Source of the DNA: an uncultured delta proteobacterium
GTDB lineage: Bacteria; Desulfobacterota; Desulfuromonadia; Geobacterales; DSM-12255
Reading direction: 5' to 3'
Assembly (NCBI GenBank): GCA_963787125.1
Contig: CAWBBV010000001.1
Location: 512,001 to 576,000 of the forward strand
Length of the DNA stretch: 64,000 nt
Shown piece after piece: positions 12,778 through 21,132 of the stretch; the stretch's first letter is position 1, and every line of letters starts with the position of its first letter. The position numbers and the translations under genes are program-made. Below the pieces are notes generated by a model. It was not told the origin of the DNA and did not search any database. It saw only the letters and a program-made list of their open reading frames with translations.

Positions 12778-14178
12778 TTATGATTTGGTGTCGACAGCAA
12801 GGGTCTGCAGCGACGTTTCCAGAAGGGTCAGATCATTGTCGAGGATAGTTCGGGTGTCAAGGAGAAAGAGGCCCTTGGCAATCCGGCCGATCACCGGGGT
12901 TGGCGCAGTGCGCAGTCGCTGCTCTATCTCGACCGCAGAGAGGGTGGGACTTGTTACCGTCAGAAGTTTTGTCGGCAGTTGCAGTAGCGGCAGCGTACCG
13001 CCACCGGCCATGGAAAAACCGCTGACCAGTTCAAGGGAAATAGTTGGCGGTAGAACTTTCTTCAATCTTCGCAGCAGCTTCCGTGCCCGGATATTCAGAT
13101 CCTTTTCCGGGATAGTCAGCATTCGCAGAATCGGGATGTCCAGTAAAGCGCTCCGCTCGTCGCGGTGCAGCTTTAAGACCCCTTCCAGGGCGCACAGGGT
13201 CATTTTGTCTACCCGCAGAGCTCTCAGGAGCGGATGTTTTTTCAGCGGCTCGATGAAACATTTTTTGCCGGCAATGATGCCTGCCTGTGGTCCACCCAGA
13301 AGCTTGTCGCCGCTGCAGACAACAATATCAGCCCCTGTGGACAGGTATTCACGCACAGTAGTCTCCCGGCAGCCGGATATGGGTGCAAGATCGATAAACA
13401 GGCCACTGCCGGCATCAACCATAACCGGCAGACCGGCTTCCTTGCCCAGTTCGGCAAGCTGGGTATGACTGACTTCAGCAGTAAAGCCGACCATGGCAAA
13501 GTTGCTGCAGCTGACCTTCAGAAGAAGAGCGCTCTCAGGTGAGATGGCGTTGCGGTAATCCTTGAGGTGGGTCCTGTTGGTCGTGCCGACCTCCCGCAGG
13601 AGTGCGCCACTCTGGGTCATGATATCCGGAATCCTGAAGGAGCCGCCGATCTCCACAAGTTCGCCGCGGGAAACGATGACTTCACGCCCTTTGGCAAGGG
13701 ATGAAAGAGCCAGCAACAGGGCGGCTGCATTGTTGTTAACCACCAGGGCGGCTTCTGCACCGGTAAGCTCGCAGATCAGCGGTTCCACATGACTGTAGCG
13801 ATCGCCCCGTTCTCCGCTTTGGCCATCGAATTCCAGATTTGAGTAGTGGAGCGCTGTTGCGGTTAGCTGTTGAGCGATCTTTTGCGGCAGGGGGGAACGG
13901 CCGAGATTGGTGTGGATGACTGTGCCGGTGGCATTGATGACCCGGCGCAGCGAAAAGCTGTTGTCTCTTTGCAGTTCTTTCGTAACCAGGGCGGCGATAG
14001 CGGGAAACTCAACGGCTGCAGCGGTAACAGCGCCGGTTTTTATTTGTGCGCGGATCGTTTCAAGGACAGTCCTGACGGCTTTCAGAACAGCCGTGCCGGG
14101 GTTGCTTTCCCGGATTGCCTGAAATGCCGGATCAGCAATCAGTTTGTCTACTTTTGGGATCTTGCGCAAAACTGACAT
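12778..14178 (-). CDS. selA: L-seryl-tRNA(Sec) selenium transferase
   Basis: VINATGTVIHTNLGR, VSRGELVEIGGSFRIPD, SGDKLLGGPQAG. Confidence 0.97.
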   Translation of the reverse strand: MSVLRKIPKVDKLIADPAFQAIRESNPGTAVLKAVRTVLETIRAQIKTGAVTAAAVEFPAIAALVTKELQRDNSFSLRRVINATGTVIHTNLGRSPLPQKIAQQLTATALHYSNLEFDGQSGERGDRYSHVEPLICELTGAEAALVVNNNAAALLLALSSLAKGREVIVSRGELVEIGGSFRIPDIMTQSGALLREVGTTNRTHLKDYRNAISPESALLLKVSCSNFAMVGFTAEVSHTQLAELGKEAGLPVMVDAGSGLFIDLAPISGCRETTVREYLSTGADIVVCSGDKLLGGPQAGIIAGKKCFIEPLKKHPLLRALRVDKMTLCALEGVLKLHRDERSALLDIPILRMLTIPEKDLNIRARKLLRRLKKVLPPTISLELVSGFSMAGGGTLPLLQLPTKLLTVTSPTLSAVEIEQRLRTAPTPVIGRIAKGLFLLDTRTILDNDLTLLETSLQTLAVDTKS

Positions 14179-15099: not shown

Positions 15100-16152
15100 T
15101 TGGATCCTATCAGGCATCTGAAAATATCAATGATGGTTTTGCTGGCGCTGGTTTCTCTCGGCGTTAGCGGCTATATGACGATCGAGGGGTGGTCACTGCT
15201 CGACGCGCTCTATATGACAATCATTACCCTTGGCACCGTCGGTTTCAAGGAGGTACATGACCTCTCCCCCTATGGCAAGATGTTTACCATCTGTCTGATC
15301 ATCTTTGGGGTCAGCGTGCTCGGTTATATTGTGGGAAGTCTTGCCCAGATCATGTTTGAAGGCCAGATTCAGAGGATTATCGGGAGGAAGAAAGTGGAGA
15401 AAAGGATCGATTCCCTCAAGGATCATTACATTATCTGCGGTTTCGGTCGCATCGGCCAGCTTATCTGCAAGGAGTTCGCCGCGAAACCGATACCGTTTCT
15501 GGTGCTGGAGAAGCATCCGGAGGCGCACGAAAAGCTGCATCACGAAGAGTATCTGCACCTGCGCGGCGATGCCACTGAAGATGAGACGCTGCTACGGGCC
15601 GGGATAAAAAGAGCCAAAGGGCTGATTTCGGTAGTAACGTCAGATTCGGAGAACGTTTATATCACTCTGACCGCCAGGGGGTTGAACCCGGACCTTTATA
15701 TCCTTGCCCGGTCGGGTGAAGAGGGTTCGGAAATCAAGCTGCGGCGCGCCGGCGCCAACAAGGTCGTTTCTCCCTACGTGATCGGTGGCGGCAGAATGGC
15801 ACAGGCGATTCTGCGCCCAAATGTAGTCGATTTTATCGAAATTGCCACTGGCCGCGAACATCTTGAACTGCAGATGGAAGAGATCATGATTCCGGCCCAA
15901 TCAGCGTTTGTCGGCGAGAATCTGATCAGCTCCGGTTTTCGGAAAGAGACCGGCACCATCATTGTCGGCATCAAAAAGTGCAGTGGCAAGATGGTATTCA
16001 ATCCTGAATCCCACTCCAAAATGGAGGCAGGTGATACCTTGATCGTGCTGGGCCATCCGGCGGCGATCAAGAAGCTGGAAGATCTGATACTGTGTGAATC
16101 CTGCGCTGCCGATGTAATCAAAAAACATAAACCGGAGTATCCCCGTGCCTAG
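15100..16152 (+). CDS. Potassium channel protein with RCK (TrkA-N/TrkA-C) domains
   Basis: Two TM helices with TLGTVGF pore signature; CGFGRIG NAD-binding RCK domain. Confidence 0.92.
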   Translation: MDPIRHLKISMMVLLALVSLGVSGYMTIEGWSLLDALYMTIITLGTVGFKEVHDLSPYGKMFTICLIIFGVSVLGYIVGSLAQIMFEGQIQRIIGRKKVEKRIDSLKDHYIICGFGRIGQLICKEFAAKPIPFLVLEKHPEAHEKLHHEEYLHLRGDATEDETLLRAGIKRAKGLISVVTSDSENVYITLTARGLNPDLYILARSGEEGSEIKLRRAGANKVVSPYVIGGGRMAQAILRPNVVDFIEIATGREHLELQMEEIMIPAQSAFVGENLISSGFRKETGTIIVGIKKCSGKMVFNPESHSKMEAGDTLIVLGHPAAIKKLEDLILCESCAADVIKKHKPEYPRA

Positions 16153-16948
16153 AACCATTCATGCCCACGTCCCTTTCCCCCAGGTGCAGCTGCATCTGGA
16201 CTACATGATCGCAAAGAATCTCCATCCCGAAATATTTTTCTCCGGAAATGTTCTGGACGAAACTTTTCCGGAAGAGATCGAGTCGGTGGCGGCAGCCCTG
16301 GCAGCCTCAGGCCGGGCCTGTACCATTCATGCCCCGTTCATGGATCTTAACCCCGGCTCTGAAGAGGATCTGATCCGGGAAGTGACCAGTCGCCGTTTCG
16401 ATCAGGTCTGCGCTGCAGCGGCAATCCTGAAGCCAAAGGTGATGGTTTTTCATCCGGGATATGACCGCTGGCGCTACGGTGAAAAGCAGAGTTCCTGGCT
16501 GGGACATTCGATTGAAACCTTCAGTGAAATACTGCAGGCTACCGAGGCGATCGGCTGCACAATAGCGGTGGAAAATATCTTTGAGGAGGAGCCGTCCACT
16601 CTGCTCGCTCTTCTGGAGTCTTTCAACCACCCCCGACTGCGTCACTGCTTCGATGTCGGCCACTGGAACCTTTTCCATGCTCCCGGTATCGGCCTGGACG
16701 AGTGGTTTGACGCTCTTGGAGCCCACATTGCGGAAATCCATATTCACGATAATAGTGGCAAAAAAGACGACCATGCCCCTGTTGGTGAAGGCAATATAGA
16801 CTTTGAACAGTATTTCAAGCTGCTGGACCGTTATGCCCCCGCTGCCGTCTGGACTATCGAAGCCCACAGTCGCGCCTGTCTTGAACGGGCGGTCGTCAAC
16901 GTTGCCAAATTTGCCGCTATTCCGGCCGCTCCCTTGAAATATTGCTGA
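16145..16948 (+). CDS. Sugar phosphate isomerase/epimerase (AP endonuclease 2 TIM barrel)
   Basis: IHAPF, FHPG, AVEN, CFDVGH, HIHDN..DDH. Confidence 0.88.
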   Translation: MPRTIHAHVPFPQVQLHLDYMIAKNLHPEIFFSGNVLDETFPEEIESVAAALAASGRACTIHAPFMDLNPGSEEDLIREVTSRRFDQVCAAAAILKPKVMVFHPGYDRWRYGEKQSSWLGHSIETFSEILQATEAIGCTIAVENIFEEEPSTLLALLESFNHPRLRHCFDVGHWNLFHAPGIGLDEWFDALGAHIAEIHIHDNSGKKDDHAPVGEGNIDFEQYFKLLDRYAPAAVWTIEAHSRACLERAVVNVAKFAAIPAAPLKYC

Positions 16949-16991
16949 TGAGCGCTTATTTTTCTTTAAGATGTAGAAAAGGAGGTCATAA

Positions 16992-17156
16992 ATGAAAGAT
17001 ATCCTGCTGCTTGGCGGAGTTGTTGCCATCTGGTATGTTATGAACCGGTTTATTCTACCTAAAATGGGGATTCAGACCTGAATGTCCGACTCATGCTCCC
17101 TCGAGGATCGAGGGGCTAAAAAAAAGAACGAGTCTGAGAAGAAAGCGGAGGAATGA
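16992..17156 (+). CDS. Candidate small membrane-anchored selenoprotein, 54 aa, Sec at codon 30; absent from ORF track
   Basis: AAGGAGG RBS; MKDILLLGGVVAIWYVMNRFILPKMGIQT-[TGA 17079]-MSDSCSLEDRGAKKKNESEKKAEE*; hairpin downstream of the TGA; final stop abuts next ATG (17158). Confidence 0.65.
17097..17115 (+). promoter_or_regulatory. Putative bacterial SECIS hairpin
   Basis: tccctcga-gga-tcgagggg; the G-starting apical loop begins 23 nt after the UGA. Confidence 0.6.
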
Positions 17157-17157
17157 A

Positions 17158-17982
17158 ATGAATCAGCTGCAGATTGACAGGGAAAAGTGCCGGATGGACG
17201 GCATCTGTGTTGCCGTCTGCCCGATGCGAATCATTGCCATGAAAGACAGCTCGTCACTGCCGGCGCTGGTGAGCGGGACCGAAGAGCTTTGCATCAAATG
17301 TGGCCACTGTGTTGCCGTTTGTCCTCACGGTGCCTTGGCGCTTGATGATATGAAAACAGAAGACTGTCCGCCGCTGCGGGCGGAGCTTGCCATTGACAGC
17401 GATCAGGCAGAGCAGTTGATCCGCTCGCGTCGTTCGATTCGTGTTTACAGTAAAAAGCCGGTAGAGCGTGAGAAGCTGGCCAGGCTGATCGATCTGGCCC
17501 ATTATGCTCCGACCGCCACCAACAGCCAGCAGGTACAGTGGCTGGTAATAAACTCGCAGCAGCTGCATTCTCTGGCCGGGATGATTATTGACATGGTACG
17601 TTATCTGATCAAGGAAGGTCATCCGCTGGCCAAGGCCTATCGGCTCGAACGGTCGGTGGCAGCCTGGGAAGCCGGGCTGGACCCGGTTCTGCGCGGAGCG
17701 CCGGCTCTTGTCATTGCCCATGCTCCCAAAGGGTACGCCATGGGCCAGGTGGACAGCACCATCGCTCTTACATCACTGGAACTGGCTGCGCCGACTGTCG
17801 GCCTCGGCTGCTGCTGGGCCGGGTTCTTTATGATGGCTGCCGGCCAGTGGCCGCCGCTGCAAGAGGCGCTGGCGCTCCCTGAAGGCCAGGTCTGCTGCGG
17901 AGCGCTGATGATCGGTTATCCGCACTACTCCTACCACCGGCTGCCGCTCAGGAAGCCTGCGGTAATCAGCTGGCGGGGATGA
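17158..17982 (+). CDS. Nitroreductase family protein with N-terminal 4Fe-4S ferredoxin domain
   Basis: CRMDGICVAVCP, CIKCGHCVAVCP, RRSIR, APTATNSQ. Confidence 0.92.
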   Translation: MNQLQIDREKCRMDGICVAVCPMRIIAMKDSSSLPALVSGTEELCIKCGHCVAVCPHGALALDDMKTEDCPPLRAELAIDSDQAEQLIRSRRSIRVYSKKPVEREKLARLIDLAHYAPTATNSQQVQWLVINSQQLHSLAGMIIDMVRYLIKEGHPLAKAYRLERSVAAWEAGLDPVLRGAPALVIAHAPKGYAMGQVDSTIALTSLELAAPTVGLGCCWAGFFMMAAGQWPPLQEALALPEGQVCCGALMIGYPHYSYHRLPLRKPAVISWRG

Positions 17983-18024
17983 AGGCGTCGGGAAGAGTGC
18001 CCCATCTTGATTAGGCGGCTATAA

Positions 18025-21000
18025 ATGCTAAAACATCGGCAACTGCCGCTCTTTTTTAATAAAGTCAGTGTCCGGCTCGTTCTCGAAGAAAGTTATGGAC
18101 GCCTGAACGGCAGCGTCCAGTATGGTGAGACACCGCTCAATCAGTGGAGTCGCGGTCTGCCGAGGGAGGTTGCTTCCTGGCTGACACAGCTACCGTATTA
18201 CGAATCCACCCTGCGCTACTTTCTGGCGTACACTACCCTGACCAAAGGTAAATATCCGCTTGTGTTCAAGCACCCTGATGGCAGGGAGCAGCCGCTGAGG
18301 CTCCTTGCCGATTCACCGCGCCGGGCTTGCCTCACTTTTTCAATAATTGATGATGAGGTAACCATTTGTCGGACAGTCGACGGCGCCTCTCCCCTTTCCG
18401 ACTGCTGCGTCGCTGCCCGGGAACTCCTTCTCGATCTGGATGCAGGGACAATCCACCCACTTGCCGACCGGGAGATCTGGAGAATATGGGATACGCTTGA
18501 GGACGAACTGAGTGTCGAGAGGGAGCCTGACGTTTTCGCCGCTGATTTTGCTGACGATGACGATTTTTATGACGACGAAGGCTTTGGTGACGACGTCGAT
18601 GACTATTGTCCGGACAATGAGCAGCGAAAAGGCAACCGGAGCGTCACCACCCGCGCGCGCTTCAATGCCGCGGCGCTACGGTTGAACTCGAACTTTACCC
18701 CCCACTGTAACGAATCTATCCTGTTTTTTCACAACGGCGCGCCGGTCATCTGCCGTCCAGAGCGGCAACTCTCCTATCAGCTGGAGCTCCCCGCCAATCT
18801 CGACAGCGCATTTATTGGCCTGCTGCCGCTGGTCTGTCTGAATGATCAGAAATACACGTTTGCCGGCGAGCTTTTCCGGTTTTTTGATCACGACAACCGC
18901 GCCCAATATTACCGGCTGCTAAAGGCGAAGAAACGGGCGCGCAATCTCATAACCGCCTGTTTTGAACTGGCAGAGGCGGCCACCCCGGCGGCGCGCCGAG
19001 CTATCATCAAGTGCGCTGTCAGTGGGCCTGATTATCTCAAGCGGGTTGTAAAAAGAGAAGCAAAAGAGATCCTGACCGCCTTTGTGGAGGAGAGCGGCCA
19101 GCGGCCGCTTCTGATCCAGGCCGCCGCTGACGGCTGGCACTTCGCCGAGGATAACCGCCGGGAGCAGATCCGCCTGGTGCGGCTTCTTCATGACCTCTTC
19201 GGTATTGATGCTTTTGATTCCGGCACCAGTCCGGGTGAGATGACTGTTGCGCAGGAGGATCTGCTGGCGCAGCTGCCGCGCCTGGCAGAGCGACTCCAAC
19301 TGGGGGGATTTTCCTTGCGGATTGGTGGCGAACCCCTGGCAACCGGAGCCTGGGATTTTGCCCTTGATGCGACCGCCAGCAGCGTTGATTGGTTTGAGCT
19401 GCGCCCCGAGATCCGCTGCGACGGTGAACTGCTCAACGCGGAAGATCTGCAACGCCTGGCAAACAGCGGGATTCTGCGCCGGGATGGCAAGCTGATTCTG
19501 ATTGACGACCTGAGTGCACAGATTTTGGCCATGCTGGCCGGGAGCGGCCTTTCTATCGGCAAACGGAAGAAGAAAGGGGGCTCAGAGGCGCTGCGGATTC
19601 CGCGGCTCCAGATCCTCGACTGGCTGCAGCTGCGCAGTCGTGGCGTTACCGTGCGGCTGGGGGCGGACGATGCCAGAATCCTGGAGAGCCTGCTAAGCTT
19701 CGGCAACATTGCTGAACGCCCGTTACCACCAAGTCTCAATGCCACCTTGCGTCCCTATCAGTGCGACGGTTATCAGTGGCTCGGCTTCCTTTACGAGCAC
19801 CGCTTCGGTGCCTGTCTGGCTGATGACATGGGCCTTGGCAAGACCATTCAGAGTATCTCCCTGTTGGCCGGTATCGCGGCAGAAACCGTTGTCAGCGCTG
19901 CTGCTCCCCGGACTCCCCATCTGATAGTGGTGCCGCCGTCGCTGCTGTTCAACTGGGAAAGCGAACTTGCCCGCTTTTTCCCCGGAGCAACCGTCTTTAC
20001 CTATACAGGCTCCAGCCGCTCCAGCGATACTTTCAAGGAACACGATATTATTCTGACCAGTTACGGCATTATCCAGCGCGACATAGAAAAACTGCTGGCA
20101 TTTCGCTTCAACGTCATCATTTTTGACGAAGCCCAGATTGTCAAAAATCTCCAGGCTGCCACCACCAGTGCGGCGCGGCGGCTTGTGGGGGCGTTCAAGC
20201 TGGCGCTTACCGGTACACCGGTGGAAAACCGCATCGAAGAGTATTACGCCATCATGGATCTTTGTCTCCCCGGACTGCTGGGGACAGCGGAAGAGTTTTA
20301 CCGTGCCTGCAGCAACCGGGCTCAAGGGGGGATTGACCGGCTGCTGCGCCGTACCCGCCCGTTTATCCTCAGGCGCAACAAACAGCTGATCGCTGCCGAC
20401 CTGCCGGATAAGATCGAAACCGATATCCACCTGGAGCTGTCGGCCAAGCAGAAGACGCTGTATCAACGCACTGTTGAAGAGGTGCGCAGCCAGATAGATG
20501 AGGCTTTTGCCAAGAACTCACCCGGTCAGGCGCGGATCATCGCCTTGACTGCCATCCTGCGCCTGCGCCAGATCTGCCTGGCGCCAGCCCTGGCACTGCC
20601 GGGCGCCACCGACTCCTCCCCCAAGCTGGATTTCCTCCTGGAGCAGCTGGCAGAGCTGCGGGATGAAGGGCATAGTGTCCTGGTTTTTTCCCAGTTCACC
20701 TCGTATCTCGATATTGTTGAAGCCGGTTTAAAGCGGCACCATCTCCCTTACCTGCGACTGGATGGCTCCACGCCGGTGCCACAGCGCAAAAAACTGGTAG
20801 AGAGCTTTCAGGATTCGGCGGCGCCAACAGTATTCCTGATCAGCCTCAAAGCCGGTGGCAAAGGGCTTAACCTGACCCGCGCCACCTATGTGTATCACCT
20901 CGACCCCTGGTGGAATCCGGCCGTGGAGAACCAGGCCTCGGACCGGGCGCACCGCATCGGCCAGACGCGCCAGGTCACCATCACCAGACTGATAATGCGG

Positions 21001-21132
21001 CACACGATTGAAGAGAAGATGATGGCTCTCAAAGAGCAGAAACTGAAGCTGTATAAAGCCATACTTGAAGAGGGAACTGCCGGCGGCGGTGCCGGCTTGA
21101 CCAGAGAGGATTTCGACTTTCTGCTTGGGTAA
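18025..21132 (+). CDS. SNF2-family helicase/ATPase
   Basis: LADDMGLGKT, DEAQ, LTGTPVEN, FSQF, GLNLT, QASDRAHRIGQ; start uncertain. Confidence 0.92.
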   Translation: MLKHRQLPLFFNKVSVRLVLEESYGRLNGSVQYGETPLNQWSRGLPREVASWLTQLPYYESTLRYFLAYTTLTKGKYPLVFKHPDGREQPLRLLADSPRRACLTFSIIDDEVTICRTVDGASPLSDCCVAARELLLDLDAGTIHPLADREIWRIWDTLEDELSVEREPDVFAADFADDDDFYDDEGFGDDVDDYCPDNEQRKGNRSVTTRARFNAAALRLNSNFTPHCNESILFFHNGAPVICRPERQLSYQLELPANLDSAFIGLLPLVCLNDQKYTFAGELFRFFDHDNRAQYYRLLKAKKRARNLITACFELAEAATPAARRAIIKCAVSGPDYLKRVVKREAKEILTAFVEESGQRPLLIQAAADGWHFAEDNRREQIRLVRLLHDLFGIDAFDSGTSPGEMTVAQEDLLAQLPRLAERLQLGGFSLRIGGEPLATGAWDFALDATASSVDWFELRPEIRCDGELLNAEDLQRLANSGILRRDGKLILIDDLSAQILAMLAGSGLSIGKRKKKGGSEALRIPRLQILDWLQLRSRGVTVRLGADDARILESLLSFGNIAERPLPPSLNATLRPYQCDGYQWLGFLYEHRFGACLADDMGLGKTIQSISLLAGIAAETVVSAAAPRTPHLIVVPPSLLFNWESELARFFPGATVFTYTGSSRSSDTFKEHDIILTSYGIIQRDIEKLLAFRFNVIIFDEAQIVKNLQAATTSAARRLVGAFKLALTGTPVENRIEEYYAIMDLCLPGLLGTAEEFYRACSNRAQGGIDRLLRRTRPFILRRNKQLIAADLPDKIETDIHLELSAKQKTLYQRTVEEVRSQIDEAFAKNSPGQARIIALTAILRLRQICLAPALALPGATDSSPKLDFLLEQLAELRDEGHSVLVFSQFTSYLDIVEAGLKRHHLPYLRLDGSTPVPQRKKLVESFQDSAAPTVFLISLKAGGKGLNLTRATYVYHLDPWWNPAVENQASDRAHRIGQTRQVTITRLIMRHTIEEKMMALKEQKLKLYKAILEEGTAGGGAGLTREDFDFLLG

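Follow-up and report, generated by a model that had tools for sequence, protein, structure and literature searches.

Does the in-frame TGA that closes a 29-codon open reading frame (ORF) in an uncultured delta proteobacterium end a hydrophobic micropeptide, or does it encode selenocysteine (Sec)? The gene in question lies in the window analysed here, a 64,000-nucleotide stretch of contig CAWBBV010000001.1 (assembly GCA_963787125.1, phylum Desulfobacterota, positions 512,001 to 576,000 of the forward strand). Its first ORF comprises 29 mostly hydrophobic codons, from ATG 16992 to TGA 17079-17081 of the window, and a Shine-Dalgarno sequence, AAGGAGG (16979-16985, forward strand), can be read directly 6 nt upstream of the ATG. 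Translation past the TGA gives M-S-D-S-C-S-L-E-D-R-G, with the Cys codon at 17094-17096, and then a Lys/Glu-rich tail as far as a second TGA at 17154-17156, which ends one base ahead of the ATG (17158) of a nitroreductase gene. The whole selenoprotein gene (16992-17156, forward strand) would then have 54 codons, the 30th being the TGA read as Sec, plus the stop.

The initial annotation of this stretch had proposed a hidden, membrane-anchored selenoprotein, decoded with the help of a selenocysteine insertion sequence (SECIS) hairpin and missed by gene callers, and had named Cys homologues aligned to the UGA, conservation beyond it and hairpin covariation as the places to look for support. Its reading of the strong ribosome-binding site, the 29-codon hydrophobic ORF and the UGA is exact to the base, and translation with TGA as U returns the U-M-S-D-S-C segment and the charged tail in a product of 54 residues. 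As described below, support of all three kinds was found. The UGA is very probably a selenocysteine codon and the product a genuine Sec-decoded protein; it is comparison with homologous genes that, in our judgement, establishes the recoding.

The TGA is retained wherever the gene is found in close relatives. When 41 related genomes (the source genome included) were searched in six frames with the readthrough peptide, 37 gave strong matches; the in-frame TGA is present in all 40 matches at E ≤ 3e-6, and the alignments of these matches extend beyond it. The remaining four genomes gave either chance-level matches only (two) or none (two). A survey of the phylum, in which a 19-member profile was run against 401 evenly sampled genomes, detected the gene in 180 of them (counting high-quality genomes, in 145 of 340; counting genera, in 118 of 255), and the TGA is present in all 150 matches among those listed. 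The gene also occurs in an even sample of Planctomycetota, where at least 21 of 201 genomes match, 19 of the 21 with TGA. It is this recurrence across related genomes and the phylum sample, and not the fold of the single sequence, that lifts the arrangement above chance. The peptide consensus is M-x-D-L-L, a helix with an invariant Trp, and then L-P-[KR]-[MLF]-G-[VI]-x-T-U-[ML]-[SA]-x-x-C, which in the source genome reads L-P-K-M-G-I-Q-T-U-M-S-D-S-C (residues 22-35, 17055-17096, forward strand). In the alignments P23, G26, T29 and U30 never vary and C35 hardly does; in more distant members the spacing is U-x5-C, or the residues following U are different. Purine-rich GGAG-type sites precede the start codon in nearly all homologues inspected.

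The sequence beyond the TGA is itself under coding constraint. In 87 distinct Sec-form sequence windows we determined what fraction of the codon pairs that differ are synonymous. This synonymous share comes to 0.467 over the 17 codons that precede the TGA and to 0.466 over codons +1 to +5 after it, as against 0.128 and 0.113 when the same +1 to +5 bases are read in the other two frames; it is 0.147 in the six hairpin codons and 0.094 in the tail. Position +2 is Ser in 81 of the 87, in a column that carries nine different codons, and position +5 is Cys in 86. The five codons past the TGA evolve as coding sequence. Further on, the residues encoded by the hairpin change along with its stem, S-L-E-D-R-G, S-P-G-S-R-G and D-L-G-D-R-G corresponding to stems that differ and still pair. 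The Lys/Arg/Glu-rich tail (17097-17153, forward strand) is poorly conserved, its first six codons being shaped by the hairpin.

Relatives with Cys at the position of the TGA came from an exhaustive profile search of 1.84 billion representative proteins, whose matches number 1500 at E ≤ 1e-3 and 77 at E ≤ 1e-10; a word-indexed protein search with the peptide gave no match, and only the exhaustive search brought the family to light. Among 39 relatives that were fetched, 31 have Cys at this position, followed by M-S-G-A-C, and one ends at residue 29. The truncated product is also on record: among the 150 database matches listed, at least 10 are exactly 29 residues long, the UGA-truncated length, and at least six more end at profile position 29. 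The source databases call the 29-residue forms 'hypothetical protein' or leave them nameless, as befits the proposal that gene callers miss the complete gene. The nearest cluster in the ESM Atlas (score 0.88, 123 members) is likewise a planctomycete 'hypothetical protein' cluster, without a functional lead.

Species-representative genomes were also scanned with one pattern specific for the Cys form, taken from the Cys-form alignment, and this yielded 312 loci. The best 80 of these are mostly from Planctomycetota; they include Pirellulales, Planctomycetaceae, Isosphaeraceae, Thermoguttaceae, Kuenenia-labelled metagenome-assembled genomes (MAGs) and the cultured Lacipirellula limnantheis I41, together with Geopsychrobacter, Desulfuromonadaceae, Syntrophobacteraceae, Syntrophaceae, Myxococcales and Omnitrophota MAGs. 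The codon at the Sec position in these best 80 is TGA in 43 and Cys in 34, with three unparsed, Cys forms being over-represented in the scan because the pattern was specific for them. In most members of the family the U/C-x4(5)-C pair opens with Sec, in others with Cys, and the family spans at least two phyla. In one MAG (L135:4001-5485, forward strand) the peptide frame continues stop-free into an FAD-dependent, SQR-like oxidoreductase, which could be a natural fusion or the result of a lost stop.

The putative SECIS element occupies 17095-17116 (forward strand). Its core stem is formed by CCCTCGA (17098-17104) and TCGAGGG (17108-17114), to which the predicted fold adds two outer pairs, and its loop, GGA, lies at 17105-17107, 23 nt after the UGA, as the initial annotation had it. 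Covariation was assessed on 32 Desulfobacterota sequences in the same register, chosen from 46 loci, 14 with the stem shifted by a few bases being left out. In this set RNAalifold finds seven pairs, five of them with compensatory double changes; 97.3% of cells pair, compared with 74.6% in shuffles (none of 500 reaches the observed value), and the figure drops to 21-53% when the partner strand is slid by 1-3 columns. Over the 36 nt that follow the codon, the mean fold z-score is −1.90 in 85 distinct Sec windows (46% below −2) and +0.14 in 34 Cys windows (3% below −2); for the planctomycete-dominated set alone the mean is −1.29 (39 Sec windows). The hairpin is thus tied to the TGA and not to the protein, being absent in the Cys forms.

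The geometry of the element matches that of an established selenoprotein gene in the same genome. The GGA loop of the peptide gene and the GGC loop of fdhA both lie at +26 to +28 counted from the T of the TGA, so that the loop stands 23 nt after the UGA in each; the selD hairpin is similar, with a 5-nt loop. With these SelB/SECIS-decoded genes the peptide gene shares an in-frame UGA, a hairpin within the coding sequence and a loop that starts with G, as well as the existence of Cys homologues and of a Sec apparatus. The type example of such bacterial genes is fdhF of Escherichia coli. Unlike the products of fdhF, fdhA and selD, however, the peptide has only 54 residues, with a single predicted membrane helix and no recognisable fold or domain.

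The apparatus required for decoding is complete in the source genome. The initial annotation had argued from selA, some 3 kb upstream (12778-14178, reverse strand; L-seryl-tRNA(Sec) selenium transferase, TIGR00474, 589.5 bits against a cut-off of 267.9, E 4.5e-177), that the genome probably encodes Sec, and selB, selD and tRNA-Sec are now found as well. SelB scores 362.6 bits (cut-off 242); tRNA-Sec has the anticodon TCA and lies about 7 kb from selB; and selD (contig C7, 238403-239323) is a selenoprotein gene too, with a TGA in its own reading frame. On contig C2, fdhA with its Sec codon (69078-72239, reverse strand), tRNA-Sec (76187-76284) and selB (83535-85424, forward strand) fall within about 16 kb. 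Across the phylum sample selA was detected in 371 of 401 genomes. The peptide gene occurs in 8 of the 20 selA-negative genomes among those listed; five of the eight are near-complete (93-100% by marker genes) and all five have selB above the cut-off; the other three are 61-79% complete. In planctomycetes selB was found in four of five genomes with the Sec form and two of five with the Cys form, and the complete Lacipirellula chromosome gave no selB match.

What kind of protein would result? AlphaFold2, given a 45-row alignment, predicts one helix at residues 2-24 (pLDDT about 89) and disorder for the remainder, tail included. Hydrophobicity agrees with a single membrane helix over these residues (16995-17063, forward strand), which contain the invariant Trp14. 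Lys/Arg residues number on average 0.53 ahead of the helix and 2.84 over the 25 positions that follow; by the positive-inside rule, this excess places the Sec/Cys pair probably at the cytoplasmic face of the membrane. In body plan the peptide resembles the eukaryotic SELENOK and SELENOS, which are short, cross the membrane once and carry Sec beyond the helix, in a cytosolic stretch that is disordered. The disordered setting of Sec has been described for SELENOK (10.1101/2021.05.15.444318). In the eukaryotic proteins, however, Sec lies near the C-terminus and the SECIS in the 3' untranslated region, whereas in the peptide Sec lies six residues after the helix and the SECIS in the coding sequence. 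The likeness would be one of body plan, and a sequence relation is not to be expected.

The family to which the peptide belongs has no counterpart among the models that we searched. The peptide matches no family of Pfam-A or NCBIfam 20.0 at E ≤ 0.1; 19 Sec members gave chance-level matches only against the same collections at E ≤ 10, and 19 Cys members nothing below E 0.02. Of the 119 prokaryotic selenoprotein families catalogued in Table 1 of a 2026 review (PMC13188914), almost every one of them with a model accession, none has the motif or architecture of the peptide. Nor is the family described in the available text of the Haft preprint (10.1101/2022.07.06.499078) or of the deep-Sep paper, and the literature consulted included PMC12013277 and PMC13510729. 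We found no description of it in the literature, the families of Haft & Tolstoy 2025 (mSystems) having been compared through the review table and NCBIfam models only. The peptide is a member of a large family of proteins of roughly 45-90 residues, distributed among Desulfobacterota-type anaerobes and Planctomycetota, that we did not find described. The family was likely overlooked because its 29-codon first ORF is at or under the usual length limits of gene calling.

One known family, YgaP-like_TM (PF11127), invites comparison. It too consists of small membrane proteins with C-terminal Cys, and these occur together with rhodanese and regulators of the ArsR type, the ILPxxGV...C of the peptide recalling the ILxKLGV...CC of the PF11127 tail, and PF11127 genes stand in the operon-like cluster of the peptide in genus g8 and at loci L025 and L198. 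PF11127 proteins have two helices and no Sec, however. The PF11127 model missed the peptide locus in a whole-genome scan at E ≤ 0.01 and was not among the Pfam matches of the peptide or of its Cys relatives, and profile-profile alignment (hhalign) gives a probability of 19% and E 0.0012 over only 17 columns that cover the tail alone. Homology to PF11127 was not established. The one PF11127 gene of the source genome (contig C16:91043-91204, reverse strand) encodes a CC-x-K tail; its orthologues adjoin the peptide gene in genus g8, though not in the source genome.

Why should so small a membrane protein carry selenocysteine? Gene neighbourhoods offer some guidance. The neighbouring ORFs of 123 loci were clustered and the clusters named by Pfam and NCBIfam. 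Of the best 80 among the 312 loci, 77 could be parsed, and in these mostly planctomycete loci the most frequent neighbour is a metallo-beta-lactamase with rhodanese domain, resembling persulfide dioxygenases (30 loci; mostly the gene just upstream on the same strand). A TauE/SafE exporter is present in 18, in 13 of which it is the next gene downstream on the same strand, starting 0-4 nt after the stop in seven; type III SQR-like genes occur in six. At least one of these three is found in 31 of the 77. Also recorded are HlyD (15 loci), ECF sigma/anti-sigma (14), ArsR-family (11), AcrB (11), thioredoxin (10) and methyltransferase-DsrE (9) genes. The order in Lacipirellula limnantheis is peroxiredoxin, CoA-disulfide-reductase-rhodanese, metallo-beta-lactamase-rhodanese, peptide, TauE, type III SQR and two methyltransferases.

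Among Desulfobacterota, ArsR-family genes abut the Sec form in several families; the best specific NCBIfam model for them is BigR, with scores below the cut-off. In genus g8 the order is AcrB, YgaP-like_TM, ArsR, peptide, methyltransferase, and at locus L198 the peptide is surrounded by thioredoxin, metallo-beta-lactamase-rhodanese, methyltransferase-DsrE and YgaP-like_TM. Forty loci were examined with 6 kb flanks, six of them added for their known ArsR neighbours and the rest taken one per family; the latter have scattered redox or regulatory genes (AhpC/redoxin, thioredoxin-like, MerR, FUR and FmdB-type zinc ribbons). Genes for FmdB-type zinc ribbons (PF09723) lie beside the peptide in several Desulfobacterota families (L040, L046, L180, L204, L209 and L210), and FmdB is itself listed as a selenoprotein family in PMC13188914.

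Metallo-beta-lactamase-rhodanese, TauE, SQR, CoA-disulfide-reductase-rhodanese and ArsR-family regulators near the peptide gene recall the sulfide/persulfide detoxification operons of the BigR/CstR/SqrR type, which contain the blh/cstB persulfide dioxygenase-rhodanese, tauE and sqr (PMC5823870, PMC7315123, PMC5480029). The phrase 'small membrane protein' does not occur in any of the 15 papers on such operons that were checked for it. The peptide locus of the source genome differs from these operons in having none of the genes named.

The best explanation of the gene is as follows. Translation would start at ATG 16992, and the hairpin core (17098-17114) would recruit SelB with Sec-tRNA(Sec) at UGA 17079-17081, so that selenocysteine is inserted there and translation ends at TGA 17154. 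The product would have its N-terminal helix in the membrane, T-U-M-S-D-S-C directly after the helix at the membrane surface, and a disordered charged tail. In its most likely role, inferred from the gene context, the tethered selenol/thiol pair would cycle between reduced, selenenylsulfide and sulfur-loaded states, and the peptide would carry or sense reactive sulfur (persulfide, polysulfide or sulfite) at the membrane. Likely partners would be a TauE-type exporter, persulfide-dioxygenase-like and rhodanese enzymes, SQR and thioredoxins, under ArsR/BigR-like regulators. We judge the combined explanation, a 54-residue membrane selenoprotein gene of an apparently undescribed family with a proposed role in reactive sulfur, to be probable. 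Taken by itself, the role in handling reactive sulfur or thiol stress is about evenly poised. The redox or metal-binding function suggested in the initial annotation is plausible, with the neighbours pointing more to reactive sulfur than to a particular metal.

Two extensions of the sulfur reading are more speculative. The TauE proteins encoded beside the peptide (L067:4473-5285, for example) have in their consensus a central loop in which three Cys positions are conserved, and these could face the Sec/Cys pair of the peptide; that the peptide is a direct partner of TauE is nonetheless a doubtful proposition. Equally tentative is the idea that the peptide is a missing membrane-tethered acceptor or relay for sulfane sulfur and a core part of sulfide handling in sulfidic anaerobes. 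In such a relay, membrane-bound SQR or polysulfide would donate sulfur to Sec30 (or Cys), and an Se-S-S/selenenylsulfide cycle with Cys35 would pass it to rhodanese/persulfide-dioxygenase enzymes or to TauE. Of the ORFs L089:5026-5670 and L067:5300-6499 (both forward strand), the one in L089 stops after matching only model positions 2-190 of 406, and it may be a second UGA-interrupted selenoprotein gene in the same operon.

Several observations weigh against a role in sulfur metabolism. The neighbours of the gene in the window (a K+ channel, a TIM-barrel enzyme, the nitroreductase and an SNF2 helicase) have no sulfur theme. Within 1.5 kb flanks of 46 Desulfobacterota loci, metallo-beta-lactamase-rhodanese occurs in one and an ArsR gene in five, in which it abuts the peptide gene with overlaps or few-base gaps; at the one-per-family loci the immediate neighbours are mostly housekeeping or unknown genes. 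Co-location with sulfide-operon genes is thus a property of the 31 of 77 mostly planctomycete loci and of a few in Desulfobacterota (L025, L198), not of the source window or of most Desulfobacterota. The planctomycete counts are moreover biased, being drawn from the best 80 of 312 loci found partly by a Cys-specific pattern, and they are not independent, since several of the loci come from near-identical MAGs. With so thin a sulfur context in its own phylum, the reactive-sulfur role is, for the source genome, an assignment by homology. Finally, the efflux pumps (HlyD, AcrB, MacB-like), ECF sigma factors, ArsA and methyltransferases among the neighbours would fit a metal(loid) or envelope-stress role.

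Could the protein be a genuine selenoprotein that handles metal(loid)s instead? The tethered Sec/Cys pair would then bind soft ions (Hg, As, Sb, Cu, Cd, or selenite/tellurite products) or deliver them to methyltransferases or efflux pumps, with a metal-sensing ArsR/SmtB or MerR regulator in control. In the mer system mercury is carried by small membrane proteins that have Cys pairs; among these, MerT, MerF and MerE resemble the peptide in presenting two soft-ligand residues at the face of the membrane, though they differ from it in helix count and motif. MerT-like selenoproteins are known (PMC13188914, Table 1). ArsR/SmtB-family genes adjoin the peptide in several lineages and a MerR gene in one; downstream SAM methyltransferases have weak arsenite-methyltransferase-like matches; and ArsA-type ATPase genes occur in four loci and efflux genes of the HlyD, AcrB and MacB types in 11-15 of the 77. 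Yet the commonest and tightest neighbours are the sulfur enzymes (metallo-beta-lactamase-rhodanese in 30 of 77, TauE in 18, SQR in six, and CoA-disulfide-reductase-rhodanese), and the best specific model for the ArsR proteins, BigR, describes a sulfite/persulfide sensor, albeit below its cut-off. Neither the peptide nor its Cys relatives matched PF02411 when scanned against Pfam, no mer genes were seen nearby, and MerA, MerP, ArsB and ArsC genes were not seen beside the peptide in the scanned loci. We regard metal(loid) handling as unlikely, though the best of the alternatives.

A more radical objection would deny selenocysteine altogether: translation would truly end at the UGA, releasing a hydrophobic micropeptide of 29 residues, and the conserved hairpin beyond it would be an RNA element with some other function, in mRNA stability or regulation for example. 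Some of our results lean this way. Gene callers do yield 29-residue proteins. The fold of the single sequence (−19.7 kcal/mol, z −1.99) is only mildly unusual, 8 of 200 shuffles being equally stable, and an Rfam scan of 16500-17700 returned chance-level matches only (E 1-7) and no SECIS family. As for limits of the selenoprotein case itself, the covariation count used sequences selected for a shared hairpin register, the p-values of the Sec-versus-Cys fold comparison overstate the case because the compared genomes are related, and the selenoprotein product is predicted from comparing sequences. Expression data do not alter the balance: the only RNA run found covers 17598-17761, which falls within the nitroreductase gene and misses that of the peptide, and is uninformative on expression, while among public reads no run had half of the words and DNA contigs of relatives cover the conserved core only. 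A true stop, however, is at odds with purifying selection in frame over codons +1 to +5, where the synonymous share is some 0.11-0.13 out of frame and 0.466 in frame, and with the near-universal Cys at +5. The homologues with Cys in place of TGA read on through the same motif and lack the hairpin, and the carriers checked have the Sec machinery. We consider this explanation very improbable, and retain selenocysteine as the meaning of the codon.

It is more improbable still that the UGA is read through without selenocysteine, by near-cognate suppression with Trp or Cys or under a variant code: Trp is indeed found at this position in five of the 39 fetched relatives, Gly in one and Leu in one, but TGA serves as the stop of the peptide gene and of many more in the source genome, the Sec apparatus of that genome is complete, the hairpin geometry is that of the fdhA SECIS in the same genome, and the W and G forms may be translations of TGA by gene callers under tables 4 or 25, or else real substitutions. 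The W, G and L forms are proteins P0004, P0005, P0012, P0016, P0018, P0019 and P0047.

The remaining alternative concerns the gene that follows. The ferredoxin-nitroreductase gene (17158-17982, forward strand; Fer4 plus Nitroreductase PF00881, E 1.8e-30) begins one nucleotide after the second TGA, and the initial annotation had taken the two genes to be coupled in translation. This part of the proposal, and with it a functional link to the nitroreductase, was not supported. No nitroreductase was found among the downstream neighbours of the other homologues scanned (42 neighbours in one set, with more in further loci); downstream neighbours differ and many are on the opposite strand, so that coupling as a conserved feature was rejected. 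In same-genus genomes the peptide gene stands alone between opposite-strand genes, which makes the 1-nt spacing a local accident of packing. A selenium-sensing leader, in which the efficiency of Sec insertion would govern whether ribosomes arrive at the second stop and would thereby couple nitroreductase translation to selenium supply, gains from that spacing and from the tight same-strand packing of 15100-21132. It is very hard to sustain, however: the downstream gene varies among homologues, the same-genus copies have opposite-strand genes on either side, the protein sequence of helix and motif is conserved in two phyla, and there are forms with Cys.

Two further features of the locus may be recorded. 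A weak sigma-70-like site, TTGAAA-17-TATTTT (9 of 12 positions; 16934-16962, forward strand), lies inside the end of the upstream gene, just 5' of the ribosome-binding site, in what is otherwise one tightly packed same-strand block. Beyond the nitroreductase, 18025-21132 (forward strand) encodes a 1035-residue SNF2-family helicase, whose best NCBIfam matches (the SCO1167-type, pilus-regulating Snf2 and Zorya ZorD models) all fall short of the respective cut-offs.

What does the finding mean for these organisms? A gene present in about 45% of the sampled genomes of the phylum (180 of 401), and in Planctomycetota as well, is invisible to standard gene calling because it is tiny and contains a UGA, and the selenoproteome counts for these organisms are too low in consequence. 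The body plan, one membrane helix with Sec in a disordered tail, would be new for bacterial selenoproteins, among which we found no described example. A family model would enable annotation pipelines to call the gene. Its recurrent placement by TauE, persulfide-dioxygenase-like/rhodanese and SQR genes makes the peptide a candidate for an unassigned step in bacterial sulfide/persulfide metabolism and, if the relay reading is true, it would be among the most widespread unannotated selenoproteins.

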